Source of the DNA: Candidatus Omnitrophota bacterium
GTDB lineage: Bacteria; Omnitrophota; Gorgyraeia; Gygaellales; JAQTUX01
Assembly (NCBI GenBank): GCA_028707125.1
Contig: JAQTUX010000001.1
Span: forward strand, 1,130,438 to 1,194,437
DNA length: 64,000 nt
Reading direction: 5' to 3'
Notes under the pieces: model-generated
Database searches by the model: none
What the model saw: only the letters and a program-made list of their open reading frames with translations
What the model was told of the DNA's origin: nothing
Program-made: the position numbers and the translations under genes
Shown: positions 13,404 through 55,417 of the stretch, piece after piece
Layout: the number at the start of each line of letters is the position of its first letter
Position numbering within the stretch: position 1 is the stretch's first letter

Positions 13404-13405
13404 AT

Positions 13406-34100: not shown

Positions 34101-37100
34101 TATCTTTGTCCCTTACGTAGATGTAGTAGGTACCTGCTCGGGCAAGTGGCACGTTTAAAGATGTTGAAGTATAGGTATAATCGCTTTCAAGCGGATTACC
34201 CTTATCGTCAAAGACCACTATGTAAGGTATAAACGTCCCTATTGCCCAGGTGAGGTTTATAATCAAAGCATCTGCTGCGCTTACTGTAAAGGAGTAGGCG
34301 TCTATTTCAGTTGGCTTTGAAATAGTGGTATCTATGGTCTGACCCGCAGTTAAGGCAACTGCTCCTGCCGGGTTGTTGAGCCGCTGCAGAGTCAAGGCAT
34401 AATTACCTGTATTCTGGCCTGTCAGATCTGAAATAGACAGAATAAACCTGCCTGAATAAGGTAAATGTTGCAATAAGTGATTAACTCCTTCTTGCGGCCA
34501 GGAGTATTTGGTATCCGCCGACTCGATAAGATTACCAGTTGAATTATATAGTTTTAAACGAGGACTAAGATTACCGCTTGTTTTAGCAAAAGGCACGTAG
34601 ATCAGGTCGTCCTTGTTGGCATTGAAGGTATAGGTAGTTACGGGCCTGCCTGCTGAGACTATGCCGGTGACCGTAGAGCCAAACTCAAGATTGGCCTGGG
34701 GGTTATTTACGCTCTGCAGGGTTATAGTATAACTGCCTGTCCCATAATCAGAGTCATTCCCTACATGGATATAATAAGTGCCTGCCTGAGGCAGAGCCAC
34801 CCGTAAAGTGAAAGCGACAGTTGACTCCGGGTAGATATACGCGCTTGTTGTGCCCAGTCGCTTGCCTTCGCTGTTATATATATCTATATAAGGTCGGAAT
34901 TGACCGGAGGATTTGATAAGGTCTATAAACAGAAAATCGGCCGAGGTAGATGTGAAGCGATAGAAGTCAATTTCAGCAGGTGTTAATATGGAGGCGGATA
35001 TGGTTTGGCCGGCTGAAAGTTCTACTGCGCCGCCTGGGTTATTCAGCCGCTGCAGGGTCAGAGAATAATTGCCTGTGTTTGTACCGGTAGAATCCGATAC
35101 AACTAACGCATATCTGTCTGTTGCCGGGAGTACCTTACTAAGGGTAGCGGATCCTGTGGTAGATACATAATCAATGCGAGCACCGCTTGAGTTAAACAGC
35201 TGAAGATGTGGCTTGAAGTTACTGCCTGCTGTCTTAGCAAAAGGTATATAGAGCTGGTCGTCCTTGTTAGCGTTAAAGGTGTAGGTAGTTGCGGGGCTGG
35301 CGGCTGAGATTGTGCCGGTAACTGTGGAGCCGAACTCAAGATTGGGAACCTCTTGGCTATTTACGCCCTGCAGGGTTATGGTATAACTGCCTGCAGCATC
35401 TACATTATCGTCGGAAATTAAAATGTGGTATGTCCCTGTAACTGATAATAAATGAACTATTCTGTCAGAGGCGTACTCAGCAACCATCCCCCCTTTATTG
35501 TCATAGAGCCGCACATAGGGAGAGAAAGAACTATTACCGCTGACTTGAGAGAAACGTATATCCGCGTATAAATTATCTCCTTCATTTACGGTAAACCTGT
35601 ATACATCCATATCTATAGGCGAGGAGATCTCAGAGGTTACTGTCTCGTTGGGAGTAATATCCACCGCGCCGCCTGGGTTGTTGAACCGCTGAGCGGTCAG
35701 AGTGTAATCACCTGTGTTGGTGCCGGTGTAATCTGAAACAATGCAAGTGAAAGTACCTGAAGAGTCCGCCTTTTCAATCCGATAAAAGGTTGTATCGGTA
35801 CTTGCTGATTCAATATATGTGGTAGCTGAACCAAACAGCTGCAACCGCGGTCGAAGAGTACCTCCTGTATTGGCAGCAGCAATATAAATATAGTCATCCT
35901 TGTCAGCATTAAAGGTGTAAGTGTCAGAGGGACTGTCGGCTGAGATTGTTCCAGTGACAGTAGAGCCGAATTCGAGGTTGGGAATATCGGGATTGTTTGT
36001 GCTCTGCAGGGTTATCGAGTAGGTACCTGTTGAATAGTCGCCTGTATAGTAGCTGGTGCCGTCTATTACGTATACGTAATATGTACCTGCTCGGGGAAGC
36101 GATACATTGAAATTCAAGGAAGCAGTCGAGTCCCAGACGAGGTCTCCTGCTCCCAACCAATCACCTCGACTGTCATATATCTCCACGCTAGGCCTAAATT
36201 CTCCTCCCGTCTTGATCAAATTGATAATTAAGGAACCGGCCGAGGCGGCGGTGAATCTGTAGGCGTCAATCTCGGTAGGAGACGATATAGAGGCAGACAA
36301 TGTCTGTCCGTCCGAAAGCTCTACCGTCCCACCCGGGTTGTTCATTCGTTGCACGGTCAGAGTGTAATCACCTGTGTTGGTGCCGGAAACATCTGAGACG
36401 GCGAGAGTAAAGGTGCCTGAGGAATTGAGTTTGCCGTATAAGCAGCCGGGTATCAGCATCAAGGGGAATTCCTCGTATGGCTCGGATAAATAGAGACCTG
36501 AAGCATCAAACAGCTGTGGCTGCGGCTGCAGGCTGCCGCCGGTATTGGCAAAAGGTATGTAAATATAGTCGTCCTTCTCGGCGCTAAAGGTGTAATAAAT
36601 AACGGGGCTGCTCTCTGAGATTGTGCCGGTGACCGTGGAGCCGAACTCAAGCTCGGTAATCTCGGGATTGCTTACGTCGCGCAGGGATATTGAGTAGCTG
36701 CCTGTGTTATATAACAAAGAATCCATTACATATATATAATATGGCCCTCCTTCGGGAAGTAAGATACCTAAAGTACCTGAATCATATATGGTTTTATAAC
36801 CCAAGATATTACCCTTTGTATCATGCGCTTCTACGTAAAGTTCGGATGAGCCGGAGGATTTGGTAAGATCTATCAGTAAAGAACCATCTGAGGTAGATGT
36901 GAAACTATAGGCATCTATCTCGGTAGGGGCCGATATATCGGCAGACAAGGTTTGGCCGGCTGAAAGTTCTACTGCACCGTCTGGGTTATTCAATCGCTGC
37001 GCGGTTAACACATAATTACCGGCGCGCATACCGGTGTAGTCTGAAACGGTGAGATTAAAGGTGCCCGAAGAAGTAATCTTACCGGATAAGTATGCGGTTG

Positions 37101-38793
37101 TCTGATAATCAATATAATAAATACCTAATAAACCGCGCGCCTCCAACATAGGTTGCGGCTGCAGCCATGGTTGAAGATCTCCTTCTGTCATGGCAACAGC
37201 GATATAAATGTAGTCATCTTTGTTTACATTGAAGGCGTAAGTATCAGAAGAGTTGCCTGTTGAGATTGTGCTGGTGACCGTGGAGCCGAACTCAAGCTCG
37301 GTAATCTCGGGATTGCTTACGTCGCGCAGGGATATTGAGTAGCTGCCTGTCTTGTAATCATCGCCAGCCATTACATATATATAATAAGTACCTACTTGTG
37401 GCAGAGATATACTTAAGGAGGCCGAGTCCTCTATTCTTCTATAATCAAGAACGTTGCCCTCTGTATCATATACCTCTATGTAGGGCCGGAACTCACCAGA
37501 AGATTTGATAATGTCTATAAGTAAACAATTGGCTGATGTGGCTGTAAAACTATAGGCGTCAATCTCGGTAGGTGCTGATATGGAAGCAGATCGGGTTTGG
37601 CCGGATGAGAGAGCTGTTACTACCCCACCTGGGTTGTTGAACCGTTGAAGGGTAAAGGCATAATCGCCTGTGTTTGTGCCGGTATAATCAGAGACAATCA
37701 GTGTAAAGGTGCCTGAAGAAGCGAGTTTGCCTGATAGGTAGTTTCGTACCTCGAACATTACTGGTCCTAGTAAGACAGGGGCGCCTGATGAGTCCAAAAG
37801 TGCCAGATAAGGCAAAAGAGCGCCCCGGGTCTCAACCGCTAGAATAGAAATATAATCATCTTTGTTGGCGCTGAAAGTATAGGTTCTAATAGGGTTTTGT
37901 TTAGAAATAGTATCTATTATGGTCTGTCCAAAAGAGATCTGTCCAGCAGAGATAATGCGGCTTTTAGTCCCTCTAATCTTAATCCCGCTTGTCTCCTTCC
38001 AGCCAGATTCAAAATTATTTATGTCTTTGGCATATAAAGAGACGACCTCTCTTATATTGCGGCTGGTATTGTTTACGAATAGGATGGGCCATTTGACCTC
38101 TAACGTATTTCTTGAGCCGCTTATCTTGACTTCAGAGCAGTCCAACGTTGCCTGCCACTCAGTCAGGTCTACCTGTATGGTCCGCTCTGCGCCCGGGGCA
38201 TAGCCGCCGCTCCACTCTGAAAGATTACCCGAAGCATATAACCTATTCTCCTGTAGGTTATACCTAAAGTAAGCCCCTCCGATAGACATATATACATCCT
38301 GTAGGTCCTGCCAGCCGGCATTGTCAAAATAAGTGGCGCTAAGTTCCAATTGCTCATTGGAACGGACTATCTCATCCTCGGGACTAACTGAGCCCGTGTA
38401 GGGTGTGGAGTTGTGTATAATGGTGTATACGGCTGTCTTTTGGTCGGTCTCTACCCCGTCTGTTACCCAGAAGGTGATAGGGTGTGTTCCTACATCGGTT
38501 TCTTCTGGCATCCAGTAGAACCTGCCTGTCTGGGCGTCTAAAGTGGCGTTTCCCCGTAATCCTTCTGCGCCAAAGACCAGTTGATTTGTGCGGTTGTATT
38601 GAACTCGCAGCGTGAATGAAATCGGCCGGCTGCCGGCCATGATAGTGCGGCCTCTAATACCGTTTAACGTCAGGCCAACATTGGCTGAGGCAGATATATC
38701 TGCGAATGCAAATGGCAGGATAAACAAAAACAGGGATATACAGAATATCCCTGTTTTAATGGCGCGGATTATGGGCCTTTTGGTTTTAAGCAC
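31120..38793 (-). CDS. Giant secreted repeat protein (2557 aa): ~8 alternating PPC/pre-peptidase-C-terminal-like repeat pairs plus five C-terminal FlgD-Ig-like domains
   Basis: GTG start with AAGGA RBS, and a signal peptide. Recurring blocks ..NNPGGAVELSAGQT.SA.IS.PTEIDAY.FT...AGTYYIYV..D...TG.Y..SLQ and ..NPEI..LEFGSTVTGTIS...DTYTFNANKDDYIYI.. Ends with repeated PNPFSPDGDG...V.IYN..G..V..L...WDGKD..G..VP.G.Y units. Confidence 0.8.
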   Translation of the reverse strand: MLKTKRPIIRAIKTGIFCISLFLFILPFAFADISASANVGLTLNGIRGRTIMAGSRPISFTLRVQYNRTNQLVFGAEGLRGNATLDAQTGRFYWMPEETDVGTHPITFWVTDGVETDQKTAVYTIIHNSTPYTGSVSPEDEIVRSNEQLELSATYFDNAGWQDLQDVYMSIGGAYFRYNLQENRLYASGNLSEWSGGYAPGAERTIQVDLTEWQATLDCSEVKISGSRNTLEVKWPILFVNNTSRNIREVVSLYAKDINNFESGWKETSGIKIRGTKSRIISAGQISFGQTIIDTISKQNPIRTYTFSANKDDYISILAVETRGALLPYLALLDSSGAPVLLGPVMFEVRNYLSGKLASSGTFTLIVSDYTGTNTGDYAFTLQRFNNPGGVVTALSSGQTRSASISAPTEIDAYSFTATSANCLLIDIIKSSGEFRPYIEVYDTEGNVLDYRRIEDSASLSISLPQVGTYYIYVMAGDDYKTGSYSISLRDVSNPEITELEFGSTVTSTISTGNSSDTYAFNVNKDDYIYIAVAMTEGDLQPWLQPQPMLEARGLLGIYYIDYQTTAYLSGKITSSGTFNLTVSDYTGMRAGNYVLTAQRLNNPDGAVELSAGQTLSADISAPTEIDAYSFTSTSDGSLLIDLTKSSGSSELYVEAHDTKGNILGYKTIYDSGTLGILLPEGGPYYIYVMDSLLYNTGSYSISLRDVSNPEITELEFGSTVTGTISESSPVIYYTFSAEKDDYIYIPFANTGGSLQPQPQLFDASGLYLSEPYEEFPLMLIPGCLYGKLNSSGTFTLAVSDVSGTNTGDYTLTVQRMNNPGGTVELSDGQTLSASISSPTEIDAYRFTAASAGSLIINLIKTGGEFRPSVEIYDSRGDWLGAGDLVWDSTASLNFNVSLPRAGTYYVYVIDGTSYYTGDYSTGTYSITLQSTNNPDIPNLEFGSTVTGTISADSPSDTYTFNADKDDYIYIAAANTGGTLRPRLQLFGSATTYIESASTDTTFYRIEKADSSGTFTCIVSDYTGTNTGDYTLTAQRFNNPGGAVDITPNETVTSEISSPIDMDVYRFTVNEGDNLYADIRFSQVSGNSSFSPYVRLYDNKGGMVAEYASDRIVHLLSVTGTYHILISDDNVDAAGSYTITLQGVNSQEVPNLEFGSTVTGTISAASPATTYTFNANKDDQLYIPFAKTAGSNFKPHLQLFNSSGARIDYVSTTGSATLSKVLPATDRYALVVSDSTGTNTGNYSLTLQRLNNPGGAVELSAGQTISASILTPAEIDFYRFTSTSADFLFIDLIKSSGQFRPYIDIYNSEGKRLGTTSAYIYPESTVAFTLRVALPQAGTYYIHVGNDSDYGTGSYTITLQSVNNPQANLEFGSTVTGIVSAGRPVTTYTFNANKDDLIYVPFAKTSGNLSPRLKLYNSTGNLIESADTKYSWPQEGVNHLLQHLPYSGRFILSISDLTGQNTGNYALTLQRLNNPAGAVALTAGQTIDTTISKPTEIDAYSFTVSAADALIINLTWAIGTFIPYIVVFDDKGNPLESDYTYTSTSLNVPLARAGTYYIYVRDKDNYKTGVYKMSVQSVNNPDITQLSFGTTVTGAISSDSPTATYSLSVSKDDNIYILFAKIGGGDKFRPYLRLFDSQGGDIASGDTRTASCLFVRPATAGTFMLTVTDHSGIHTGTYALTAQRMNDPAQAEEISLGQSKSGLLSPLIPLKSYTFNANKDDYIYVALAKTGGSSNFNVSAALYDDTGNHLNSTSTATDTIDNHFMEKLPKTGRYALILTDYEYVNIIDTTYVSSGNYSFSLQRLNNPAGAVALTAGQTIDAAISAPAEIDAYSFTVSAADTLIINLIKTTGVFTPYIAVYDDNGNQLNRIYTSTSTSLSVSLARAGTYYIYAMDYNNYKTGGYKMSVQNLNNPANATNIAFGETVTSEISSPIDMDVYRFTINEGDNLYADICFSKVSGNNYFSPYVWLYDNAGKMIADSTSGSIIHSLPAAGIYYIFVSDHNIDARGSYSISLSNEIPDIGDISVMPNPFSPDESGTWVDIDTGEIFNDPGPNRILDDIANISFTTTKQGFFDIKVLDSNGQIVRQFVYGVLTPEPQSNLINLQWNGRDQNGNPVPNGTYTLIVNAGSVNRQKAATINVSKNVFITTARITPNPFSPDGDGVDETTAISYSLSENSYVSVEIYNQQSALVRKLTDNQFLSYGNHSTIWDGKDEQGAYLPEGRYTIKIGARAENGEEVSSVYLNVSILFISNIRISTDKINPYTGGAVTISYRMSHEGILSIKVYNSRDELVKNIILNQDRQAGAYSESWDGKDNTGRIVPDGAYYFIIEDSAGGRPMVVYDPRGTGGRDISKSITLSAGDFKPLLNQFCVINYTLPQAAKINLKVRYERYSGPAVRVLKYQEPVSSGMHQILWDGRDEAGNFVNPADFTFAIWGYTLDENSIMVVGGRPVISRPAVGPMRFSPYDNPYSTSVSESIISFILPRDANVTINIYDSEGNPVRNLLNNHPCAQGSNSFIWDGRNNQGKLLAEGFYRAVIQAEKDGNYSEGYTLHTEIFY
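32950..37900. repeat. Intragenic tandem DNA repeats (~360-750 nt period) within the giant gene
   Basis: Recurrent near-identical stretches, e.g. gggttgttgagccgctgcag, gtagatat(a/c)gtcgtccttgttggc, and gaccgtggagccgaactcaagctcggtaatctcgggattgcttacgtcgcgcagggatattgagtagctgcctgt, which occurs twice exactly. Confidence 0.6.
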
Positions 38794-39327: not shown

Positions 39328-42231
39328 CTACGCTAGCGGTAAATGGATAATAAACTTGGTGCCTTTGCCATGTTCTGACTCAACCTCAACCGAACCTTTA
39401 TGCATTTCGGAGATTATGCGCCTGATAACGTAAAGCCCCAGGCCTGTCCCCTTGTTCGCGGTGGCCTTGGTAGTGAAAAACGGCGTGAACATCTTCTTCA
39501 AATTCCCCTCTTTTACGCCCATGCCGTTATCCTCCACGACGATCTCCAGGGACTTGCCCTCCGGCCGCGCGGAAATCCTTATCCTGCCCTTGTATCCCTC
39601 TTCCTTTAACGTTTCCTTGCGTTCCTTGATCGCGTCGTAGCCGTTATCAATCAAATTGAAGAACACTTCCTGCAGCTGGACTAAATTACCGTAGATTTTA
39701 TGGTCTTTTTCGGGATAATCCTTGACCAGTTCAAAATCCGCCAGCTTGACCTTGTATTGCACCATTTCCAGCGTATTCTCAATGATCTCGCTCAGGGATA
39801 CAGCCTTAAATCCTTCTTCGCCTTTCTTACTGTATTTCAACAGGCCCTTGACTATTTCGCCTCCCTGAAGAACATTTGCCTGGACCCTGCCAAAGGCATA
39901 TTCTAATTCATCAAATAATTCCCGCATCTCCTTGCCTTGAACGCCTTTTTCTTTCTCAAAGATCTTTAATGTATCCAGCGTGTTTCCGGAAATCAGGGCC
40001 AGAGCGTGGAAACGGTTGTTTATCTGATGGGAAAGCCCGTCTGCCATAGTGCCGATGGTAGCCATTTTCTCTGCCTGCGCTATCTGTTCCTGCATCTCCT
40101 GCGCCTCCTGGTAGAATTCGGCGTTCTCAATTGCCAGGGCCGCCTGGCTGGCGAGCACAGAAAACACATTGATATCTTCAGGCGTATAGGGCTTGCCGGA
40201 AAATTTATCGCCAAGCGCGAGAAACCCCAAAAACTTATCCTCCAGAAAAGTCGGCACTATCATATTCGCCTCAAGCATAGCCATTTGTTCAAGCGCGCCG
40301 GAAACATTCGTATCAAATTCATCCTGGACCTGCTGTTTTAACTCATCGTATACAAACGGTTCTTTCATGTCGGACATCAGCGTGGTCAATGGACTTGACG
40401 CGTTGATTTCCCGCGGATAGGCAGCGCTGTCCTTGCCTCTCTGCGATTTTAAGACAAAGCAGCCATTTTTTTCGTCTAAAAGATAGATCGCCACGCGTTT
40501 AATCTTTACTATCTTGGTAAGAACATGAGTAATGAGATTCAGCAGCCGCTGAAGGTTGCGCACGCGCGTCATTCCTCTGGATGCCTGTTTCAGGGTATTG
40601 TGATACCTATTTTGTTCCCACAACAGACGCTCCTCTGCTCTATGTTGAATATATAGGTAAATATACGGACCTGAGGTTGCTAAGGCAGCCATTAACCCTA
40701 AAGGCGCTATCCACCATCTGCCGCCAAATAAGGTAATGAGTGTGCTACTGCCCCAGGTGGCAAGGGCAAAAGGAAGGCCTAAAACCAGCGTATACACAAA
40801 AACGAATATGCCGGCGCGGGTAAGGGCGATATTGATATTAAGAAGCCGGAATTTTAAGATCGCGTAGGTAACAACACAGGCATACAGAACAATACCAAAA
40901 TTGCCAAAAGGATAAAAAATGTCTATGCCGAATTCCGGCAGGAATGTTGAAGTGCCTCCGATAAACCCGCATAAAAATCCAAATATTATATAAAGAGCTT
41001 GGGTTCGCTGAGTGCCCCTGGATTTTCCAAGGAATCTGGTAAGTTCAAAATAACTCAAAACAATTAAAGACACATAGCAAATAATTCCTAACAAAAGTAA
41101 CGGCGTAACTTCGTTATAATAAATCCCAAAGGCAACTCTAGTCTTATTTATAAGATAAGGGGTACATAAATTTAATATATTGAATAAAATGGCTTGCGTA
41201 TACGCGAATTGTAATACCCGCCTTCGTGATACCTTGCATAATACGCACACCAGATGATAGAAGAACGTCCCTATAAAAAATCCGCCGAAATGAGCGATCT
41301 TCCAACCTAATATTCCAATCGATTCTCTAGTAGCTACACCCGCTATAAATGAGCCGACACCCCAGAAAGTCACAGCAATATTAAACAGCATTAATAATCT
41401 ATGTAATTTAGTTTTGCCGACAACCAAAGTAATAAAAGACAAAATAAAGCAGAAAACTCCCACCGTTAAACCAGCCAATGCAAACAAATTCATTAACAAG
41501 AATCCTATGGGCATACCTACAACTAAAGCAAGGATCATAGCGTAGACGGCTATTCGCGAGAAGGCGATCCGGATATCCATAAACCTATATTTTAAAATTG
41601 CGTAAGTAATAATTGAACAATATATTAATATACTAAAATTGCCTACTGGATAAACATCAAGCCCGAATTCCGGTAAGAATGTTGAAATTCCACCTAAAAA
41701 GCCAATAAGGAATCCCGAAATCATATAAATAGTCTGCCGGCGCTTTTCTGCTTTGGTACTCGGTAAATATTTTAATAATTCATAGAAACTTGAACATACA
41801 AGTGATAACCATATTATTACAGTCGCAAAATAAAATAACGTCCCTTCATTAATATATATTGAATTAAAAGCGAATCTTACTCTATTTATAACTAGGTCTG
41901 TCATAAAAATAAGAGAAAGCATGATTAACCCAGTTACATAAATTGTAAGAACCGTCTTTTTTCTTTTAAGGCCGCAAAACACACATACCATATGATAAAA
42001 AAGTATACCTATGGGAATACCTCCGAGATGCGCAATCTTCCAACCCAAGATTGCTTTCGATGGGGTAGATGATATTCCCGCAATGAATAAACCCAATCCC
42101 CATAGAAGTACAGCGCCGTTAAAAAAGGCTAATATTCTATGTAGTTTGGTTTTACCATATATTAACGATACGAACATCAACACTAAGCCAAAAATAGATA
42201 CCAATAATCCTGACAGCGCAAATAGATTCAT
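39328..42231 (-). CDS. Sensor histidine kinase: tandem duplicated 7TM N-domain, GAF, HisKA, HATPase_c
   Basis: Two ~240-aa membrane repeats both start MNLFAL(S/A)GL... GAF region present. HisKA LSHQINNRFHAL. ATPase motifs DNGMGV...GTGLGL. Confidence 0.8.
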   Translation of the reverse strand: MNLFALSGLLVSIFGLVLMFVSLIYGKTKLHRILAFFNGAVLLWGLGLFIAGISSTPSKAILGWKIAHLGGIPIGILFYHMVCVFCGLKRKKTVLTIYVTGLIMLSLIFMTDLVINRVRFAFNSIYINEGTLFYFATVIIWLSLVCSSFYELLKYLPSTKAEKRRQTIYMISGFLIGFLGGISTFLPEFGLDVYPVGNFSILIYCSIITYAILKYRFMDIRIAFSRIAVYAMILALVVGMPIGFLLMNLFALAGLTVGVFCFILSFITLVVGKTKLHRLLMLFNIAVTFWGVGSFIAGVATRESIGILGWKIAHFGGFFIGTFFYHLVCVLCKVSRRRVLQFAYTQAILFNILNLCTPYLINKTRVAFGIYYNEVTPLLLLGIICYVSLIVLSYFELTRFLGKSRGTQRTQALYIIFGFLCGFIGGTSTFLPEFGIDIFYPFGNFGIVLYACVVTYAILKFRLLNINIALTRAGIFVFVYTLVLGLPFALATWGSSTLITLFGGRWWIAPLGLMAALATSGPYIYLYIQHRAEERLLWEQNRYHNTLKQASRGMTRVRNLQRLLNLITHVLTKIVKIKRVAIYLLDEKNGCFVLKSQRGKDSAAYPREINASSPLTTLMSDMKEPFVYDELKQQVQDEFDTNVSGALEQMAMLEANMIVPTFLEDKFLGFLALGDKFSGKPYTPEDINVFSVLASQAALAIENAEFYQEAQEMQEQIAQAEKMATIGTMADGLSHQINNRFHALALISGNTLDTLKIFEKEKGVQGKEMRELFDELEYAFGRVQANVLQGGEIVKGLLKYSKKGEEGFKAVSLSEIIENTLEMVQYKVKLADFELVKDYPEKDHKIYGNLVQLQEVFFNLIDNGYDAIKERKETLKEEGYKGRIRISARPEGKSLEIVVEDNGMGVKEGNLKKMFTPFFTTKATANKGTGLGLYVIRRIISEMHKGSVEVESEHGKGTKFIIHLPLA

Positions 42232-43760
42232 GTCTTACCCTTACTTTTTTTTATCTTGTTTTTATTTAAAATTGCCTCTGCCGCCTGTTCTCCTGCGTAT
42301 AAAACCATGGATACGCCACCGCCCATACGCGTCCAGGCGCTTGCCAAATATAGGTTCCTTATGGGGGTTCTGTTGTCTAGCCGGTTCATACCGCTCTGAG
42401 ATACAACCTGGCTCCACCCGTAAACTGCTCCTTTATAATTTCCGGTATACCTTTCCATCGTTACGGGCGTGGCTACCTCAACTTTCTCAATATAAGAAGA
42501 TAGATTCGGTATGATCTTTTCGCTGGCCTTGATCAATTCCCGCGAAACCCTTATTTTCTCCTGCAAGTACTGCTCTTTTGTTAATTTAGCCCAAGAGTCA
42601 TAATAAGAAAAGAAAGTAATCCCCATGCTGAATTTTCCTTGCGGGGCCGCGTCGGGATCGATATTAGAATATAACGTCAAACAGAACAATGCATCTTTTA
42701 TGTCAAACTCTCCGGAACATGCAGCGAATTGCTTATTAATATCATAATGCGGATTATAAAAAATCTCATAATCTGAAAATCCCAATTCTCTCAAATCTCT
42801 GTTTAATCCTAAATATACCTGAGCGATAGAGATTGACGGCTCCATCTGCCGAATCTTACTAATAAATTTTACCGGCAGATATTGTTCGCCAATCAATTCA
42901 AGAAAAGTCATACGCGCGTCAACATTTGAGATAAAAAAACTGGCGGAAAATTCTTCGCCTTTATCGGTTATAACCTTTTTTGCGTTCTTATTTTCTAGAA
43001 CTATCTTAGTAATTTTAGAATTTAGTAATACCACCCCTCCATATTCCTTGGTGCTATGTAAAAGGGCATCTGTAATGCTCTGTACGCCTCCCTTTAAATA
43101 ATAACCGCCATTGCGAAAGAAATCATAGGAAGGAAAGACAAAATAAACAGAGGACAATTTATCAAATGGCAGGCCATAATATGGCCAAAACTGCCCAATT
43201 ATAACTTTTAACCTCTCATCTTTTATAAACCTGTCTAATAAATTCTTGTATGGTTTATTGTGATATTTAAATAATGTACGATATTTAAATGGGAGAAAGG
43301 AAGACTCTATGTTCAAGGGTAGATCAGAATACACAAACTTTCTTATATCGGAATATAATTTAGCCATTTCCTTAAATAATTTCTCAATACCTTTCCGTTC
43401 TGAAGGAAAATAGTTTGCTAAAGCACCTATCTGTCCGGAAGAATCAAATTGAGGTAATCGGAAATCAAGATCAGGATATATGGAACGGTATAAATATTGC
43501 GACCTTAGAAAATTAACTCTATTTAGTGCCCCGCATTTTTTAAGGACATTATAAGAAAGCCCTCCTTCACTACAACCATTCATCAAATGCAGCGAGGCGT
43601 CAAAATTAAAATCTCCCCGCCGGAAATTCACGGCATAGCCGCCGGCGACATGGTTTTTCTCCAGGACCAGCACCTTTTTACCGTTTTTTGCCAAGATGGC
43701 GGCTGCGGTTAAGCCGCCTATCCCTGCGCCGATTATGATGACATCGTATTTATTGCTCAT
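42228..43760 (-). CDS. FAD-dependent oxidoreductase, phytoene desaturase (CrtI)-like family
   Basis: N-terminal Rossmann YDVIIIGAGIGGLTAAAILAKNGKKVLVLEKNHVAGG. ~510 aa. C-terminal CrtI-like region. Confidence 0.65.
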   Translation of the reverse strand: MSNKYDVIIIGAGIGGLTAAAILAKNGKKVLVLEKNHVAGGYAVNFRRGDFNFDASLHLMNGCSEGGLSYNVLKKCGALNRVNFLRSQYLYRSIYPDLDFRLPQFDSSGQIGALANYFPSERKGIEKLFKEMAKLYSDIRKFVYSDLPLNIESSFLPFKYRTLFKYHNKPYKNLLDRFIKDERLKVIIGQFWPYYGLPFDKLSSVYFVFPSYDFFRNGGYYLKGGVQSITDALLHSTKEYGGVVLLNSKITKIVLENKNAKKVITDKGEEFSASFFISNVDARMTFLELIGEQYLPVKFISKIRQMEPSISIAQVYLGLNRDLRELGFSDYEIFYNPHYDINKQFAACSGEFDIKDALFCLTLYSNIDPDAAPQGKFSMGITFFSYYDSWAKLTKEQYLQEKIRVSRELIKASEKIIPNLSSYIEKVEVATPVTMERYTGNYKGAVYGWSQVVSQSGMNRLDNRTPIRNLYLASAWTRMGGGVSMVLYAGEQAAEAILNKNKIKKSKGKT

Positions 43761-43788
43761 TTAAGTCGCCATTCAAATTAAATATAAA

Positions 43789-43865
43789 TCATCAACTTCA
43801 AAACCCTAAACACTAAACTCTAAACACTAAACAAACCCAAAACATAAAACACAAAACTCAAAACA
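43789..43865. repeat. G-free AC-rich tract (CTAAAC/AAAC low-complexity) flanking the four-helix-bundle gene
   Basis: ~77 nt with no G on the plus strand. Complementary in composition, and partly in sequence, to the GT-only tract at 44196..44270. Confidence 0.7.
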
Positions 43866-44225
43866 TTACTTGGATTTCTCAACTATGGAGCCGAAAATCT
43901 TTGTTAACTCAGTTGCCTCCTGGATCAAGGCATCCCTTTCCTGAATTTGACCGTCCTTTGGCTCGGTTAACTCAAGCCAATACCTGCTTTCTTTTGCTTC
44001 TTTCCTTGATATTTTTATTCTCATTATGAAATCTTTCTTGCTAAGGGATTCTTCGGCTTCAATATAATTGGCTCCAACAGAACCTGAGGCCCTAATAAGC
44101 TGAACTCCATCTTCAATATCGGCGATACTTCTCGGTAAATCTTTTATATAATTCCTGACTCTTATTGCAAATTTCTTTGTCCTCTCTCCTAAGTCATATG
44201 GTTTTGGGTTTTGAGTTTGGGTCAT
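43866..44225 (-). CDS. Four-helix-bundle protein (TIGR02436, '23S rRNA-intervening sequence protein' family)
   Basis: 119 aa with ...ASGSVGANYIEAEESLSKKDFIMRIKISRKEAKESRYWLEL... typical of this family. Confidence 0.7.
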   Translation of the reverse strand: MTQTQNPKPYDLGERTKKFAIRVRNYIKDLPRSIADIEDGVQLIRASGSVGANYIEAEESLSKKDFIMRIKISRKEAKESRYWLELTEPKDGQIQERDALIQEATELTKIFGSIVEKSK

Positions 44226-44270
44226 TTGGGTTTATTTAGAGTTTAGGGTTTCGGGTTTAGTGTTTGTTTT
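44196..44270. repeat. C-free GT-rich tract, inverted partner of 43789..43865
   Basis: ~75 nt with no C on the plus strand (ggttttgggttttgagtttggg...gtttagggtttcgggtttagtgtttgtttt). It overlaps the first 10 codons of the gene. Confidence 0.7.
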
Positions 44271-44275
44271 ATTGT

Positions 44276-45547
44276 TCATATTTTCCTGAATACCACCGCC
44301 GCGTTGAAGCCGGCGAAGCCGCAGGCGGTTTTTACAACAGTCCTGAGATTGATTCTTGTGAATTCCCTTACGGGAGTAATATTCAGCTTAGGATCCGGTA
44401 TGCCGCAATTTAATACCGGAGGCACCAGGTTATTTTCTAAAGATAAAAGCAAGATCGCGGTTTCCAACAAAGCGGTGCTGCCTAAATTGTGGCCCACATA
44501 GGGTTTGAATGCCGTGATAAGCGGCCTTTTGGGGTTTTTGCCGAACACGGCGGTGATCGCCTTTGCCTCGTATGCGTCGGTAACAGGCGTGGCAACTCCG
44601 TGAGGCACTATTAAATCCACCTTCTTTTTATTGACGCGCGCGTTTTTTATGGCGCCTTCAATGACGCCTTTATATGAATCGCTGGTCATATCCGGCACGG
44701 AAATCTTCCAGCCCTCCATATGGAAGGCGCCGCCGGCATACTCCGCGTATATACGCGCTCCCCTCTTTTTAGCGCTCTTTAAATCCTCCAATACGATGCC
44801 TGCTCCGCCGTCGCCTAAGACAAACCCGTCCCTGTTTTTGGCGAACGGCTTTATCAATCCGTCCCGCGCGTACATACCCAGGCGCCTGAACCAGGATTGC
44901 TTAAAAATGCTCGGCCTGTCAGCCGCCGCCACGATCACGGAGTCGCATTTACCGCTCTTTATGATGCCTGCCCCTGCCTCAAGCGCGTACAGGCCTGAAG
45001 CGCAGGCATTGTTTACAAATAAAGAGTAGCCGTGAATACCCAGCGCCTTTGCCGCGTAATATAAGAATACAAATGTCTGTAGATCGTGCCCTCTTTTGGC
45101 GAACCCTTCGTTGATACCTTTGAAAAACCCAAGCTTATTCTCCTGCTTTAATTTATAAAACTCATCTACTACATCAGTATAGAATTCATCCAGGCCGGGA
45201 TTCTCATGCGCGAGGACCAAGCCGATCCTGTTTCCGTCAATCTCTGTATGGCTGTCATCCAGGGCAAGCTTCGCCGCTGCTATAAGGTAAAACAAATCCT
45301 GCGGCTCTCTCCCGTCTTTCCACTGCCGGATATCCGCTAAGACCTGCTTATCAATATTGAAATTGCCGATATTAAAATCCTTGATCTTATGCGCAAAATA
45401 TTTATCGATCAATGTGCCGTCCAGAGAGAACTCTTCCTGCGTAAGGCCTGTGTCCCTGTTCAACACAGAATGCCAGACATTATCCCTGCCCGCGCCTATC
45501 GCCGATAACGGCCCTAAACCAGTTATGACAACTCGTTTATCCTTCAT
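44276..45547 (-). CDS. Beta-ketoacyl-ACP synthase (KAS I/II family; catalytic Cys present)
   Basis: NACASGL active-site Cys. VPHGVATP and VGHNLGSTA His positions are retained. Confidence 0.75.
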   Translation of the reverse strand: MKDKRVVITGLGPLSAIGAGRDNVWHSVLNRDTGLTQEEFSLDGTLIDKYFAHKIKDFNIGNFNIDKQVLADIRQWKDGREPQDLFYLIAAAKLALDDSHTEIDGNRIGLVLAHENPGLDEFYTDVVDEFYKLKQENKLGFFKGINEGFAKRGHDLQTFVFLYYAAKALGIHGYSLFVNNACASGLYALEAGAGIIKSGKCDSVIVAAADRPSIFKQSWFRRLGMYARDGLIKPFAKNRDGFVLGDGGAGIVLEDLKSAKKRGARIYAEYAGGAFHMEGWKISVPDMTSDSYKGVIEGAIKNARVNKKKVDLIVPHGVATPVTDAYEAKAITAVFGKNPKRPLITAFKPYVGHNLGSTALLETAILLLSLENNLVPPVLNCGIPDPKLNITPVREFTRINLRTVVKTACGFAGFNAAVVFRKI

Positions 45548-49783: not shown

Positions 49784-51964
49784 CTACCTCCCCTTGCCGG
49801 CGTCCGCCGCGTTTGCTGCCGGTAATCTGACAGTAACAACCGTCCCCTTATTCAACTCGGAATCAATGCTGATCGTGCCTTTGTGCTTTTCAACAATGGA
49901 CTGGCATATGGAAAGGCCCAGCCCCAGCCCCTTTCCCACGTCCTTGGTAGTGAAAAAAGGGTCAAAGATCTTCCGTTGTATATCCCTGGATATGCCTGTG
50001 CCTTCATCCTCCACGGCTATCGCGACCCATTTGCCGTTCCTGGATAATGTTACGCGGATGTCCCCGCTTTTCTTTATCTTCCTTATGGCGTCCCTGCCGT
50101 TTAAGATTATATTGGTCAATACCTGTTCCAGTTCGTTGGGATTGCCCTTGACAACATAGCCGTCCTTCTTAAGGTCGGCGACGATCCTGACGTTCTCCTG
50201 TTCCAGCTGATAGCCGATAAAACTCATCACGCTCTTGAACACATCCGACAGATCCACTTCGGAAAAATCTACCGCTTCAAGCGGCTTCCTGCCGTAGGCC
50301 ATCAGCTTCTGCACGATCGTGCGGCACCTCCTGGTCGCCTCTTCTATGATCTCAAGGGACTCCCTGTCCATCCCTGTATCTACGGCTAAAAGCATCTGGA
50401 CGTTGGTCAGTATCGCCGCCAGAGGATTGTTGATCTCATGCGCCACGCCGCCTGCCAGAGTACCTACCGTCGCCAGTTTCTCCGCCTGGACCAGCTGTTT
50501 CTGCACCTCAACCAGCTCCCTGGTCCTCTGCCTGACCTGATCTTCTATGTTCTCATACAAGAGGGCGTTCTCAATGGCTAAAGCGGCCTGGCTTGCCAGA
50601 ACAGAAAAGGCATTCAGATCTTCCTGCGTATAGGTCTTCTCAGAAAGCTTGTCCCCCAATATAAGAAAACCCAGCAGCTTATCTTCCGAAAAGCTGGGCA
50701 CGACTACGGCGGCGTCCAAAAGTTCCAACTGTTTTTCCAAACTCTCAAGCCCGGAATCAACATCTTCTTCTGTTTCCCGCTTTATTTCTTCGTGCACTAT
50801 CGGCTCGCGCCCGTCTTCAAGGCATTTGATCAACCGGGTTTCTCTGCCTATGGACGCGGGCTGACCCTGTTTCAAATTCCCCCCCGCCTTCAAAACAAAC
50901 TTTCCGCCTTCTTTATCATATAAATATATCGCCGAATGAGAAATATGGACGTTCTGAATGACAATATTCACGAAAAAATGCAATAACTCCTGCAGGCTGT
51001 GGATCCGGGTCATCCCCATCCCCGCCTGCTTTAAGATCTCCTGATAACGCCTCTGCTCCTTAAGCAGGCCTTCTTCGGCTTTACGCTGCAGGTAAATATA
51101 AACCAGGGTGGCAACCGTAGCCAGGACCGCTATTGAACCCGACGGCAGTATCCACCAATTTACCCCGAAATTAGCGACGAAGAGGTCCTTAAGCCGCAAA
51201 GCCAGGGCAAAAGGTATACCCAAAAGCAAGGTATAAACCGCTATAAAGATCCCTGTGCGGGTAATGGCGACCTTTATATCCATAAGACGGTAGCGGAGTA
51301 TGGCGTAAGTGACCATAAAGAAGTATAAGGGGACGGTAAAGTTCAAAATGGGATAAAGGTTCAGGCCGAAACAGGGCAGGAAAGACGTCCCCCCGCCCGC
51401 GAAGCCCAAAGCGGCGGCAGAGAGAAAATACTTGATCTGATCGCGCTTCAGGCCGCTCATCTTTTTATAATTTATTACCAGTTCAATATGGCCGTACAGC
51501 ACCAGTCCGGCAAAGTAAAAGATGACGAACAGATAAAGCAGCGGCCCGCCGGGATAAACAAAATATACCGGCTTGACCCACTTCAAGTCCGTAAAATATA
51601 AGGTACAGCTATTGATAAAAAGGCCCTTAAAGAAAATGTCGGATACCAGGAATATAACAGCCCATAACCCTAAGAATCTGATAAAAAGAGGATGTTTAAT
51701 GTGCAGGAATTCATAAATAAGGTATACAAATGAGAACGGTATTAAAATGATCCCCACATAAGCGAACTGCCACCAGAAAAATGCCTCTGACGCGCTTTCG
51801 GCGTGGCTGACCATAAATGCCCCGAACCCGTAAAAAGAGGTAGCGAAAGCAAAAATAGACCACTTCCTGGCCAGTTTAGTCCTGTAGCCTTTGACATAGA
51901 CAAAGACCGCCATGGATAGACTGGTGATCGCCGTTAATATACTGGATATGCCGTAAAGGTTCAT
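49784..51964 (-). CDS. Sensor histidine kinase (7TM N-domain, GAF, HisKA, HATPase_c)
   Basis: N-terminal 7TM. HisKA VAHEINNPLAAI. ATPase DEGTGI...GLGLGL. Paralog of 39328..42231 with a single 7TM unit. Confidence 0.8.
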   Translation of the reverse strand: MNLYGISSILTAITSLSMAVFVYVKGYRTKLARKWSIFAFATSFYGFGAFMVSHAESASEAFFWWQFAYVGIILIPFSFVYLIYEFLHIKHPLFIRFLGLWAVIFLVSDIFFKGLFINSCTLYFTDLKWVKPVYFVYPGGPLLYLFVIFYFAGLVLYGHIELVINYKKMSGLKRDQIKYFLSAAALGFAGGGTSFLPCFGLNLYPILNFTVPLYFFMVTYAILRYRLMDIKVAITRTGIFIAVYTLLLGIPFALALRLKDLFVANFGVNWWILPSGSIAVLATVATLVYIYLQRKAEEGLLKEQRRYQEILKQAGMGMTRIHSLQELLHFFVNIVIQNVHISHSAIYLYDKEGGKFVLKAGGNLKQGQPASIGRETRLIKCLEDGREPIVHEEIKRETEEDVDSGLESLEKQLELLDAAVVVPSFSEDKLLGFLILGDKLSEKTYTQEDLNAFSVLASQAALAIENALLYENIEDQVRQRTRELVEVQKQLVQAEKLATVGTLAGGVAHEINNPLAAILTNVQMLLAVDTGMDRESLEIIEEATRRCRTIVQKLMAYGRKPLEAVDFSEVDLSDVFKSVMSFIGYQLEQENVRIVADLKKDGYVVKGNPNELEQVLTNIILNGRDAIRKIKKSGDIRVTLSRNGKWVAIAVEDEGTGISRDIQRKIFDPFFTTKDVGKGLGLGLSICQSIVEKHKGTISIDSELNKGTVVTVRLPAANAADAGKGR

Positions 51965-53264: not shown

Positions 53265-54833
53265 TCAGACCTTTATCGTTTCTTTTACCCTGCCTACCAT
53301 TGAGGCGTCCACTAATTTATCTCCCCAATAAAAATCAGACACCTCAAAGCCGTGTTTGGCGCCCAACAACCGTATCTCTTCCATTTTTTCGGACGTGATG
53401 TTTCCTCTGCCGAAACTGAAATTCTCGTAGCGTTTCTCAAGCGCCAAAATGATCGCCTCGGAAAAACAGCCGTAGAGGACGTTTCCCGGCGGAAGCCCTA
53501 TATCAATAGGTATATGAATGGGCGTGGGCGCCTTTGCCATGCCGCCTGAAAATATCAGCACATCCTGCCTGGATACCGGCGCGTAAGAGATATTCTTGGG
53601 GTATCCCACGTCGCAGATTATGGCGCCGGGCTTAAACCACTCTATCTTCAGAATGGAGGCGCTGGCTGCTGCCGCGGCGATAACAATATCGGCGTCCCTC
53701 ACGGCTGCCTCGTTATCGGTCGTGGCCGCTATCCTTGCCTTTCTCTTCTTTGACAGCTCCTTTTTCATCTTCGCGAGGTTTGATTTTGTGCGCCCGGTTA
53801 TGGTCACCTGCGCCGCCTTTTCCGACAACACCCTGGCGCAGGCGCTTCCGATGTCGCCGGTGCCTCCTATAACGGTGGCCTTCGCGGCTGAGATGTCCAG
53901 ATCCAGCATACGGGAGGCCTTGAGCACGCCTTCAACAGCCATTGCCGCGGTAAAGGTATTTCCCGTCGTCACTGCCACGTCCACCTCGTTGGCGATCTCC
54001 TGCCCTATCCTCTCCGCCACAATAGAGGTAAAGCCGCCGAGAGTGACTATGCCCACGCCGTATTTCTCGGCGATCCTGCAGGCCCTGACCACCTTGGCGA
54101 ATATGGACCACATATCCTTCTCTATCATATCGGGGATAAATGTGGCGATGATAAAACAGCCGTTTGTGACCGCGCCGGCATTTGACTTGACGTTCATAAT
54201 ATCGTATAGCTTGAAAGAAGGCGCTACGTTGAAAAGCTGGCCGAGGAATTCCCGCGAAGGCATCTTGATATCGGGCTTGAGCGCCTGGAGGTATTTCTGC
54301 CAGTGGTTATAATTATAGGGATGGCCGATGATCCCGAAACCCGCCACCTTGTCTTTGTCGCCGTGCTTGAAACTGGCGTAACGCAGAGATATCAGGCGGC
54401 GCTCCATCGCGTCCAGGATCGCCTCAAAATTACTCGTGACCAGCTTCTTTATAAAATCGTCGGCGAAGTCGGCGATCACGGGTATGCCCACCCTTATCTG
54501 GACATTCACAATCACCTCGGTGCCTTCGGGGTGCTTCTTGAAGATCCACTCGCCCTTGAACTCTTCCAGGTCGCCCTCTACGGCATTAAAACGGACGGTG
54601 TTATTCCTCAGATCAAGAGTGTCTTCCTCTACCCAGCTTATGGGGACATTGTTGACCTCAACCCTCCATTTCGTCTTCATCTTGTTGCGGCTTTTCTCTA
54701 CGACCGACGCCTCTTTTACATGCACCATATAACTGGGGAAATCCTCAACCTTTGTTATGAGGCGGATCACCTTCCATTCCGGGGCAGGCACCACCTTTGA
54801 TAAACGTATCTTCATTACCTCCTCTTTAGCCAT
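53265..54833 (-). CDS. Fusion protein: N-terminal SRPBCC (START/polyketide-cyclase-like) domain + long-chain acyl-ACP reductase (cyanobacterial AAR)-like domain
   Basis: C-terminal ~340 aa has GFGIIGH, LGGFTSI, TTGNTFTAA, VIGGTGDIGSACARVL, DVGYPKN, FSFGRGNITSEKMEEI...HGF. These match the conserved blocks of acyl-ACP reductase (Pfam Shikimate_DH-like). The N-terminal ~150 aa resembles an SRPBCC ligand-binding fold. Confidence 0.6.
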   Translation of the reverse strand: MAKEEVMKIRLSKVVPAPEWKVIRLITKVEDFPSYMVHVKEASVVEKSRNKMKTKWRVEVNNVPISWVEEDTLDLRNNTVRFNAVEGDLEEFKGEWIFKKHPEGTEVIVNVQIRVGIPVIADFADDFIKKLVTSNFEAILDAMERRLISLRYASFKHGDKDKVAGFGIIGHPYNYNHWQKYLQALKPDIKMPSREFLGQLFNVAPSFKLYDIMNVKSNAGAVTNGCFIIATFIPDMIEKDMWSIFAKVVRACRIAEKYGVGIVTLGGFTSIVAERIGQEIANEVDVAVTTGNTFTAAMAVEGVLKASRMLDLDISAAKATVIGGTGDIGSACARVLSEKAAQVTITGRTKSNLAKMKKELSKKRKARIAATTDNEAAVRDADIVIAAAAASASILKIEWFKPGAIICDVGYPKNISYAPVSRQDVLIFSGGMAKAPTPIHIPIDIGLPPGNVLYGCFSEAIILALEKRYENFSFGRGNITSEKMEEIRLLGAKHGFEVSDFYWGDKLVDASMVGRVKETIKV

Positions 54834-55416
54834 GCGTCATCTCCTCTATTGTATTTTTTAATTTATGGATACATTCCTGCATATAAATATCATCTATTAT
54901 CTCGTGGTGCATCTTCATAAGGTATTGCGGCTTGCCTATCATGATCCTGATAGGGCGCAGCCTGGGGAACTTCGCGCTTCTGGGGAACGCCTCGAAGGCG
55001 CCCATGATGGCGCAGGGCAGTATGGGCCTGCCGGTCTTAAGCGCCAGAAGCGCCACGCCCCTTCTGAACGGCCTCATCTTGCCGTCGCGCGTGCGCGTGC
55101 CTTCGGGAAAGAGCCCGACATTCCTGTCGTGGAACAACAGGTCTACCGCGTGCTTTGAAGAGCTCCCGCTCGCCAGCGTTTTGAGCCTGCGCATAAACCA
55201 ACGCAAGCCCAGCATAAAATGGAACTGCCTTAAGGCGATCCAGTAGATCTTTTTCGGTATTGCCGCGCCCACAATAAACGGGTCAAGGAAACTTACGTGG
55301 TTTGCCACTACGATAAAATTCCCCTTCCTCGGTATATTATCCCTGCCCTCTATCTTAAGCCGGAAAAACACCTTGAGTATAATAAACCCTAAATCCCTGA
55401 ATATCCAATACCACAT
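54826..55416 (-). CDS. 1-acyl-sn-glycerol-3-phosphate acyltransferase (PlsC-like)
   Basis: HX4D motif VANHVSFLD and FPEGTRTRDG. The start is placed at the internal Met so that it abuts the upstream HTH gene. Confidence 0.7.
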   Translation of the reverse strand: MWYWIFRDLGFIILKVFFRLKIEGRDNIPRKGNFIVVANHVSFLDPFIVGAAIPKKIYWIALRQFHFMLGLRWFMRRLKTLASGSSSKHAVDLLFHDRNVGLFPEGTRTRDGKMRPFRRGVALLALKTGRPILPCAIMGAFEAFPRSAKFPRLRPIRIMIGKPQYLMKMHHEIIDDIYMQECIHKLKNTIEEMTHG

Positions 55417-55417
55417 A

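Follow-up and report, generated by a model that had tools for sequence, protein, structure and literature searches.

The 64,000-nt stretch analyzed here (the window) comes from contig JAQTUX010000001.1 of a Candidatus Omnitrophota bacterium (assembly GCA_028707125.1, positions 1,130,438 to 1,194,437). Within a minus-strand lipid/polyketide operon it carries a cassette made of a gene for a four-helix-bundle (4HB) protein and two flanking tracts, or arms, that are largely complementary to each other. The operon is annotated in the order KR, β-ketoacyl synthase (KS), ACP, FabA, KS, KS, cassette, CrtI-like gene and histidine kinase, so that the element separates a KS gene from a CrtI-like gene, as stated in a preliminary description of this DNA that was made from its letters alone. 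All operon junctions except the cassette site are overlaps or spacers of at most 11 nt. Along the minus strand, the end of KS at 44276 is followed by 50 nt, a 119-codon open reading frame (ORF; 44225-43866), a further 105 nt and the CrtI-like ATG at 43760. From upstream to downstream, the parts of the locus are as follows:

44276 to 45547, minus strand: upstream host gene, a β-ketoacyl synthase (CLF-like), whose 3′ end overlaps the CrtI-like gene in relatives
44268 to 44279, minus strand: left copy of the target duplication, ATGAACAATAAA, a direct repeat and relic CrtI-like start (M-N-N-K) that overlaps the KS stop (ATGA)
44234 to 44265, minus strand: outer block of the 5′ arm, four heptamers plus AAAT (AAACACT AAACCCG AAACCCT AAACTCT AAAT), G-poor and without a Shine-Dalgarno sequence
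44196 to 44233, minus strand: inner block of the 5′ arm, AAACCCAAATG plus codons 1-10 (start codon 44223-44225); the heptamer skeleton enters the ORF, and the block pairs with 43834-43865 in the predicted fold
43866 to 44225, minus strand: cassette ORF for a 119-aa four-helix-bundle protein (PF05635/TIGR02436; S23p or intervening sequence (IVS)-protein family; Avd-like fold), assigned by profile matches, AlphaFold 2 and Foldseek
43834 to 43865, minus strand: inner block of the 3′ arm, TGTTTTGAGTTTTGTGTTTTATGTTTTGGGTT, C-free, which complements codons 1-10
43801 to 43833, minus strand: outer block of the 3′ arm (TGTTTAG TGTTTAG AGTTTAG TGTTTAG GGTTT), which complements the outer 5′ block
43761 to 43800, minus strand: 40-nt tail from the last heptamer to the CrtI-like start, a small local hairpin in the predicted fold
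43749 to 43760, minus strand: right copy of the target duplication, ATGAGCAATAAA, the live CrtI-like start (M-S-N-K-Y-D-V)
42228 to 43760, minus strand: downstream host gene, an FAD-dependent amine-oxidase/CrtI-like oxidoreductase

The 50 nt that separate the KS stop (44276) from the cassette ATG (44225) comprise 28 A, 15 C, 6 T and 1 G (86% A+C) and are nearly free of G, and the 105 nt preceding the CrtI-like ATG contain only 2 C. The complement of this C-free trailer, a G-free run of 103 nt on the plus strand (43769-43871), has an A content of about 11-19% and is the longest run lacking any single base in the window. Both tracts were found where the preliminary description had placed them on the minus strand, but its leader built only from A and C and its trailer built only from G and U do not agree with these counts: the flanks are a G-depleted and a C-free tract, each of three letters, and not low-complexity two-letter DNA. 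They are arrays of units of ~7 nt (AAAnnCk and its complement, e.g., AAACACT, AAACCCG, AAACCCT, AAACTCT), and the 7-nt periodicity runs on through codons 1-10 of the ORF and ~30 nt past its stop codon. A sigma-70-like promoter, a terminator and a Shine-Dalgarno sequence belonging to the cassette are all absent.

The closest CrtI-like orthologues with the same gene order are P0122 (77% identical, locus L083) and P0125 (60%, loci L085 and L086). At these three loci the CrtI-like gene begins inside the last KS (an 11-nt overlap, counted from the true ATG), and the cassette and its heptamers are absent. In the window, the CrtI-like start region is present twice, as the relic ATGAACAATAAA at 44279-44268 and as the live ATGAGCAATAAA at 43760-43749, whereas the empty sites L083 and L085 have one ATGgAaAATAAA, to which both junctions align. 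Judged by these alignments, the cassette is a derived insertion; it measures ~519 nt with one copy of the 12-nt target duplication (11 of 12 positions identical) counted in, and its arms and ORF arrived together as a compact unit. The duplication may reach ~20 nt, because ACTTAAA before the live start resembles the KS 3′ end in L083. Both host genes are intact because the cassette entered the overlap and duplicated ~12 nt of the target. The view of the element as an inserted, IVS-like selfish cassette, for which the preliminary description had pointed to orthologous operons as the place to look, is therefore supported by the absence of the whole segment from the closest relatives. The more distant relative L081 has neither the CrtI-like gene nor the cassette. 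A KS-based search of metagenomes yielded two distant loci only and no clean empty site, whereas the CrtI-like route gave the empty sites described above. In L084, gene calling split the CrtI-like gene of a close relative (1729-3243, 83% identity) into ORFs of 125 and 373 aa, probably owing to a frameshift or an assembly error; its upstream neighbors are AAA_14/DUF4143 genes and not KS.

The cassette protein matches PF05635 (50.1 bits, cut-off 33.8) and TIGR02436, "four helix bundle protein" (72.9 bits, cut-off 24), in agreement with its earlier assignment to the "23S rRNA IVS protein" type. These are its only Pfam/NCBIfam matches, with no match to an HUH/Y1 (RAYT) transposase, and none of the PADLOC defense models matches it. 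The conserved family motif RxxxSxxxNxxE (Lin 2006; Zhang 2013, quoted in PMC3936711) is present as R45-S49-N53-E56, and S49, N53 and E56 are invariant in 31 homologues. The AlphaFold 2 monomer model (pLDDT 89.6) shows helices at residues 12-28, 34-58, 63-86 and 91-118, with residues 1-8 disordered. In Foldseek, the best match was the S23p-family protein BT_0352 (2rld; 31% identity, E 2.9e-5, TM 0.73-0.80, five chains matched); Xcc0516 (2gsc; TM 0.74-0.79) was also recovered, and next came Avd of the diversity-generating retroelements (DGRs) at 15% identity (4dwl, and chains of the DGR ribonucleoprotein 8ub7). Since 2gsc is a pentamer (PMC4990558), we infer from 2gsc, 2rld and 4dwl that the cassette protein forms a homopentameric ring. 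The pN/pS ratio is about 0.31, indicating purifying selection, and synonymous sites are saturated even in comparison with the closest relatives; from both observations, we conclude that the protein is functional and that the family is old.

This family is large. More than 7,995 homologues are present in a database clustered at 90% identity, the top 120 of them being 72-82% identical to the cassette protein, and 5,931 clusters at 50% identity match it (E ≤ 1e-3). An identical protein is recorded for a 1.26-Mb contig of Candidatus Omnitrophica. One genome per species was scanned, and 80 of at least 554 loci were kept. They belong to Omnitrophota, Patescibacteria/Saccharibacteria, Planctomycetota (including anammox genera), Desulfobacterota, Verrucomicrobiota, Gammaproteobacteria, Bacteroidota, Chloroflexota, Cloacimonadota, WOR-3 and a Methanophagales archaeon, a patchy distribution across phyla at 60-80% identity. 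Nearly all 80 loci have the arm-ORF-arm layout, with a modal arm-to-arm length of 466-476 nt and the termini 5′-AAAYYCK...MGRRTTT-3′, and nearly all have a counterpart of the outer 5′ block. These copies start directly after the upstream stop codon and are followed at their 3′ end by the ribosome-binding site (RBS) and ATG of the next gene. Co-orientation with the cassette holds for 67 of 71 upstream genes and 63 of 74 downstream genes; this placement between co-directional genes suggests that the cassette depends on host read-through transcription. Miniature forms also exist: L011, L053, L049 and L024 contain ORF-less derivatives, hairpins of 100-150 nt in which the 5′ arm is joined nearly directly to the 3′ arm, and the 80 loci hold 37 extra arrays in total. 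A search for further copies, 23S rDNA included, had been suggested by the preliminary description; none was found in the window, where the Rfam scan reveals no rRNA gene, or inside the rRNA of the relatives (0 of 20 related loci scanned with Rfam). Next to one Omnitrophota copy (L007), a c-di-GMP-I riboswitch (2488-2610, minus strand) is located ~400 nt upstream of the cassette, on the opposite strand.

The units of an array evolve in concert. Classified by their last letters (CT, CG or xC), they show a within-arm purity of 0.85, and the dominant type is concordant between the two arms in 56 of 61 elements. Unit type tracks the protein phylogeny: a protein and its nearest neighbor share it in 53 of 62 cases (24.5 expected; at most 42 in shuffles). 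Host composition was rejected as the driver of the choice between CT and CG, which is independent of GC content and of CpG/TpA bias. Two minor features of the arms can be mentioned here. The 3′ arms (43801-43811 in the window; L001 among the related loci) contain GTTTAGGGTTT, the plant-type telomere unit TTTAGGG, which we take to be a coincidence of the A/C-skeleton heptamer. In CT-type arms (e.g., 44236-44265 and 43801-43830), the CTAAA units supply each reading frame with a stop (TAA, or TAG in the 3′ arm) within 21 nt, because 7 is not a multiple of 3, so any ORF reading into the cassette ends there; this property may be incidental, as CG-type arms lack it.

More distant PF05635 genes (31-41% identity) were found on plasmids of cultured cyanobacteria, Bacteroidota, Chloroflexota and Bacillota, at similar within-operon sites:

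csx2, then the 4HB gene, then cas1
KAS III, then the 4HB gene, then an M20 hydrolase
a helicase, then the 4HB gene, then an N6-methylase
DrmD, then the 4HB gene, then MmeI
HsdS, then a decayed 4HB gene, then HsdR

Relatives of the cassette protein are often encoded inside CRISPR, restriction-modification (RM) and DISARM operons. The plasmid genes are flanked by other units (AATTCGT x4.5/ACGAATT x4, AATTTGG x6, TTTTGAA x4-5, CCCCAAT x3 plus TCGTAAA x4, GTCGGAG/A, GTCACTG x13 and GAAGGAT), and 7 is the best period in 19 of the 22 flanks of the 11 plasmid examples scored (p about 1e-16). CCCCAAT is presumably one of the cyanobacterial short tandemly repeated repetitive (STRR) heptamers, which count among the intergenic heptanucleotide repeats. 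The arms of cyanobacterial relatives complement each other perfectly over 33 bp. In 50 kb of the Nostoc flagelliforme plasmid pNFSY06, every strong period-7 array has ~4.7 copies (33 nt); two inverted array pairs bracket both 4HB genes, three more inverted pairs enclose no ORF, and four of the eight strong arrays abut 4HB genes (p about 1e-7). The array was detected on one side only in L092 and L093, and in L087 and L088 arrays on both sides have the same orientation. The flanks between csx2, the 4HB gene and cas1 in L087 (Pseudanabaena galeata pPg_04, 1400-1497 and about 1960-2010) consist of a pyrimidine-only 35-nt unit, itself five nnnCTTC heptamers, repeated ~2.5 times. In a twelfth plasmid copy, L098 (Monoglobus pectinilyticus), an unannotated PF05635 pseudogene with in-frame stops lies between hsdS and hsdR (about 580-930) and retains inverted heptamer arms (AATTAGG/AATGAGG units); by these features, it is a decaying cassette.

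We next consider the pairing of the two arms of the window copy. Its best inverted repeat joins 43801-43841 to 44225-44265 (41 nt, 85% complementarity), and the three shared cores given in the preliminary description, AAACTCAAAAC, AAACCCAAAAC and CTAAACTCTAAA, are all exact complementary pairs. Co-folding of 44196-44275 with 43789-43865 (as reverse complements) gave −54.0 kcal/mol, compared with −34.9 ± 4.7 for shuffles that preserve the skewed composition of each arm (z = −4.07), and none of the 300 shuffles reached the observed value. In a 530-nt transcript, the predicted fold pairs the arms around the ORF (z = −3.2, 0 of 100 shuffles). The long stem enclosing the ORF that had been proposed, together with the comparison of its energy with shuffled controls, is thus upheld as a prediction. 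Its longest helix in this copy has 15 consecutive pairs and is accompanied by shorter ones, and the start codon of the ORF sits inside the stem. Fold prediction gave no structure within either arm by itself, and no known RNA family was found on the arms in Rfam at the gathering cut-off and at E ≤ 1.

These predictions could mean that the RNA stem is the selected function. The cassette would then be an rRNA-type IVS that moved into mRNA, its stem would be an RNase III site that excises it and splits the transcript, and the heptamers would be incidental. The stem that beats its controls, the start codon within it and the perfect complements of the cyanobacterial arms are all consistent with this idea, as are the S23p-ORF IVSs, whose terminal inverted repeats are cut by RNase III (PMC4990558). 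Nevertheless, we regard it as rather unlikely in view of how the arms vary across the family. Own arms reach −42.6 kcal/mol, against −26.6 for shuffled arms and −36.3 for foreign ones (p = 7.5e-5), and the gain over foreign arms is probably explained by the shared unit type. G·U mismatches are not more frequent than A·C mismatches (289 vs. 278 over all aligned positions; 26 vs. 25 when isolated within helices), and sense-strand RNA selection through wobble pairs was rejected on these counts. In 42 well-anchored elements (anchored on the AAA skeleton; those with the 3′ anchor on the inner block were left out), opposed heptamers match at 14.3 of 16 skeleton positions, whereas the variable positions, three per unit, match at 5.83 of 12 in the true register, compared with 6.14 when the unit order is permuted and 5.80 with foreign arms. 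Compensatory covariation at these positions was consequently rejected as well. In addition, the uniformity of letters within an arm is not needed for a helix, and the direct and one-sided arrays of the plasmid examples do not fit a stem. Since compensatory changes and a G·U bias are both lacking, it is the repeated heptamer, and not the stem, that selection visibly maintains; the arms are complementary because both are arrays of one lineage-specific heptamer. On this evidence, the conserved feature is a lineage-specific heptamer, present in ~9 copies per end in inverted orientation. The conservation of synonymous codons is 0.67 at codons 2-10, compared with 0.39-0.42 elsewhere, and is not raised at the C-terminus.

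We lean towards the view that the cassette is an IVS-type element organized like a REPIN/RAYT system, whose heptamer arrays would be the cis recognition sites of its own pentameric protein. The element itself is self-contained and promoter-less: a 5′ array of ~9 heptamers (AAAnnCk) extending over the start codon and through codon 10, the protein, and a complementary 3′ array. It entered the overlapping KS/CrtI-like junction with duplication of ~12 nt of the target, and in this model it would be transcribed by read-through from the host operon. The pentameric protein would recognize the arrays, with a block of ~4-5 units fitting one ring; we infer this recognition because the S23p relatives are pentameric rings and the related Avd pentamer, which has the same fold, belongs to an RNA-protein complex (8ub7; PMC6182149). 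Being inverted relative to each other, the two arrays may also pair in the transcript and bury the cassette start codon, and RNase III could plausibly cut the stem, by analogy with rRNA IVSs, severing the operon mRNA at that point. Stem and cleavage together would restrict translation of the cassette protein to a co-transcriptional window. The likeness to REPIN/RAYT lies in the ORF-less array pairs, which would be the non-autonomous form; here, however, the protein would be non-catalytic.

Several observations weigh against this interpretation. Neither a second cassette-type array nor another PF05635 gene occurs elsewhere in the 64-kb window, and no further copy in the 1.26-Mb source contig appeared among the close homologues listed. 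A target-site duplication is undetectable across the family (longest common flanking word 5.79 nt for own flanks vs. 5.59 nt for the null). Phage carriage was not found in IMG/VR with the cassette patterns, and INPHARED gave one weak partial match. Synonymous sites have reached saturation even in comparisons with the nearest relatives, so that any mobility may not be recent. That unit type goes with protein lineage might be a matter of simple co-inheritance, and the A-ending codons at the 5′ end of the ORF could reflect selection for an unstructured initiation region. The alignment columns best tied to unit type (116, 119 and 109) fall in the C-terminal codons, and this signal is confounded, because those codons abut the start of the 3′ arm. 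Lastly, pairing is stronger between the arms of the window copy than in the family on average (−66 vs. −43 kcal/mol), so that the stem may have a role.

A wider proposal, which we make tentatively and hold to be somewhat less probable than not, is that PF05635 proteins and heptamer arrays in general constitute one two-part system comparable to REPIN/RAYT. The 7-nt units would be lineage "dialects", ~4-5 units (28-35 nt) would serve one pentamer, and gene-less pairs would be dispersed non-autonomous copies. Published data contain several matching elements. In the Coxiella IVS, 3-4 GACAGAT heptamers precede the S23p ATG, and the stem is cut by RNase III (PMC4990558). GGGAATC arrays of Xanthomonas campestris typically have 4 units and lie 3-16 nt past stop codons (PMC4692102 S2 Table A); they include 70 inverted pairs, several of them in operon spacers such as groES-groEL and atpA-atpG (PMC4692102). 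We found that array #15 of that table and the start codon of XCC0516 overlap; XCC0516 is the PF05635 protein solved as 2GSC. The papers on heptamer arrays (PMC4692102, and PMC4679880 for TAACTGA) leave the PF05635 protein unmentioned. Zhang et al. (2013) reported 18 PF05635 genes inside cas loci and took them as functional partners (PMC3936711), and rRNA insertions of the candidate phyla radiation (CPR) carry the PF05635 domain as well (PMC11270868). In the literature that we searched, which was incomplete, it seems undescribed that PF05635 genes are generally bracketed by inverted heptamer arrays or tied to intergenic heptanucleotide repeats.

If the PF05635 proteins were instead beneficial to the host, they would be trans-acting RNA-binding regulators that act on arrays throughout the genome and tune mRNA stability or translation, with their own arrays being autoregulatory. 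The strong conservation of the protein, the position of the arrays exactly between stop codons and the next RBS, and the start codon inside the array would agree with this, and a post-transcriptional role has been proposed for the TAACTGA heptamers located upstream of start codons (PMC4679880). We nonetheless consider it improbable. The window has one cassette and no other array to regulate, the closest orthologous operons lack the cassette, and the distribution across phyla is patchy at 60-80% identity. Moreover, decayed copies exist (L098 and the Coxiella S23p gene), and the recurrence in defense and accessory operons is typical of hitchhiking DNA.

Omnitrophota and CPR genomes are rich in DGRs, and the cassette protein might accordingly be an orphan DGR accessory protein Avd. 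The fold search does recover 4dwl and 8ub7, and PF05635 is an Avd-like Pfam family (PMC10053308). However, identity to Avd is 15%, compared with 31% to the non-DGR S23p protein BT_0352; the neighbors are KS, ACP, FabA, KR, CrtI-like and histidine kinase genes, with no reverse transcriptase among the 14 window proteins scanned; neither a template/variable repeat pair nor a long direct repeat surrounds the cassette; and the same cassette occurs in unrelated operons across the 80 loci. This origin is thus highly improbable. Chance, that is, an ordinary small gene beside low-complexity intergenic DNA, can be dismissed: composition-preserving shuffles already reach −35 kcal/mol, but the pairing beats all 300 of them, the architecture recurs in nearly all 80 independent loci and the empty sites show that arms and ORF arrived jointly.

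Returning to the IVS-type, REPIN/RAYT-like cassette, we compared it with the systems that it resembles. ORF-containing 23S rRNA IVSs, known from Leptospira, Coxiella burnetii, Xanthomonas and Brucella, have long been suspected to be mobile (PMC4990558). Like them, the cassette has a PF05635 ORF in sense orientation to the host transcript, a length in the range of ~430-760 nt, terminal inverted repeats by which the ORF is enclosed in a stem, tandem heptamers directly before the ATG (GACAGAT x3-4 in Coxiella), no strong Shine-Dalgarno sequence, and short ORF-less versions. It differs in residing in an mRNA operon spacer rather than in helix 25 or 45 of 23S rRNA, in having a protein under purifying selection whereas the Coxiella protein is decaying, and in having arms that are heptamer arrays of ~65 nt instead of a 28-bp stem; RNase III excision is known for the IVSs, whereas for the cassette it is a prediction. 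By protein and architecture the cassette belongs with the ORF-containing rRNA IVSs, but it does not share their location in rRNA.

With REPIN/RAYT systems, the cassette shares a small gene with a short repeat on both sides in inverted orientation, the occurrence of this repeat as gene-less inverted hairpin doublets in intergenic spacers just past stop codons (at the family level; the window has none), and a lineage-specific repeat that is co-inherited with the gene. In contrast, RAYT is an HUH/Y1 transposase and the PF05635 protein is a 119-aa four-helix bundle without known catalytic activity; the cassette repeats are tandem heptamer arrays whereas REPs are single palindromes; and the gene-bearing cassette is itself inserted at many loci and in many phyla. 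Avd has the same four-helix-bundle fold and is also pentameric, acting in the DGR reverse-transcriptase ribonucleoprotein (4dwl, 8ub7; PMC6182149). The low identity, the lack of a reverse transcriptase among the 14 window proteins scanned and of template and variable repeats around the cassette, and the cassette's own heptamer arms separate the two.

The intergenic heptanucleotide repeats (GGGAATC in Xanthomonas, GGGGAYT in Nostoc, TAACTGA in Beggiatoaceae) likewise form arrays of ~4-5 heptamers (PMC4692102, PMC4679880), often as inverted pairs 21-140 nt apart, a few nt past stop codons and inside operons. They were described without a gene and read as G-quadruplexes, slippage products or regulatory sites, whereas the cassette arrays bracket a PF05635 gene; the link between the Xcc array and XCC0516 was not drawn by the authors who reported the arrays (PMC4692102). 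Finally, miniature inverted-repeat transposable elements and small insertion sequences also have terminal inverted repeats and both autonomous and miniature forms, and this copy of the cassette is flanked by a 12-nt target duplication. Unlike them, the cassette has no transposase and no family-wide target-site duplication, and shows a strong orientation and position bias between co-directional genes.

The architecture joins three separate literatures: rRNA IVSs with an S23p ORF, which have been described since the 1990s, 4HB genes in cas and defense loci, which have so far been read as functional partners of those systems, and intergenic heptanucleotide repeats. If the two-part system were true, rRNA IVSs and the 4HB genes of CRISPR, RM and biosynthetic operons would be faces of one element, and much of the excess of heptanucleotide repeats (GGGAATC in Xanthomonas, the Nostoc heptamers and possibly TAACTGA in Beggiatoaceae) would be explained as well. 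The architecture may thus help to explain why 7-base repeats are so frequent between bacterial genes. For annotation, PF05635 genes within operons would be better treated as inserted cassettes than as members of the host pathway. In the operon studied here, the insertion broke the 11-nt translational overlap of KS and the CrtI-like gene, and it may add an RNA processing site.

Other skewed or repetitive stretches of the window were inspected. The G-free runs near 58.8, 55.6 and 25.5 kb were rejected as sibling elements, being unrelated to the cassette. The second-longest of all G-free runs (58791-58866 on the plus strand, 76 nt, C/T/A-rich) has no 7-nt periodicity and no partner arm, and covers the start of the minus-strand gene 58049-58801 plus its upstream spacer. 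The G-free stretch 55645-55685 holds CCTAAACATACCTAAACATA, with two CTAAAC motifs 10 nt apart, and lies in the 300 nt that separate gene 54826-55470 from gene 55769-56983; this stretch may be coincidental or may represent a degenerate solo arm. Apart from the cassette arms, pattern search in the window found a single period-7 array, AAGCGCA x3 at 407-429 (minus strand), whose sequence is unrelated to those arms.

Beyond the cassette, a 967-aa 7TM-GAF-HATPase sensor kinase (39328-42231, minus strand) is encoded downstream of the operon; its HisKA_7TM module is present twice in tandem, and so is the motif MNLFAL.GL...GKTKLHR. Upstream of the operon, another 7TM-GAF kinase is encoded at 49784-51964, and the orthologous operons likewise end in such kinases. 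A cobalamin riboswitch (RF00174, 108 bits) at 1974-2160, minus strand, lies upstream of a minus-strand gene with its end near 1908. The window also contains a cluster of giant Rhs/Tc-toxin-like genes (7035-16792, 26849-30673, 31120-38793 and 59520-63734, all on the minus strand). Their products include proteins of 2122 aa (RHS, TcdB_mid, FG-GAP), 1128 aa (SpvB), 1274 aa (RHS with a DUF4329 C-terminal tip) and 1404 aa (RHS and LamG), together with an unannotated ORF of 2557 aa, which suggests that these are polymorphic-toxin loci in an Omnitrophota genome.

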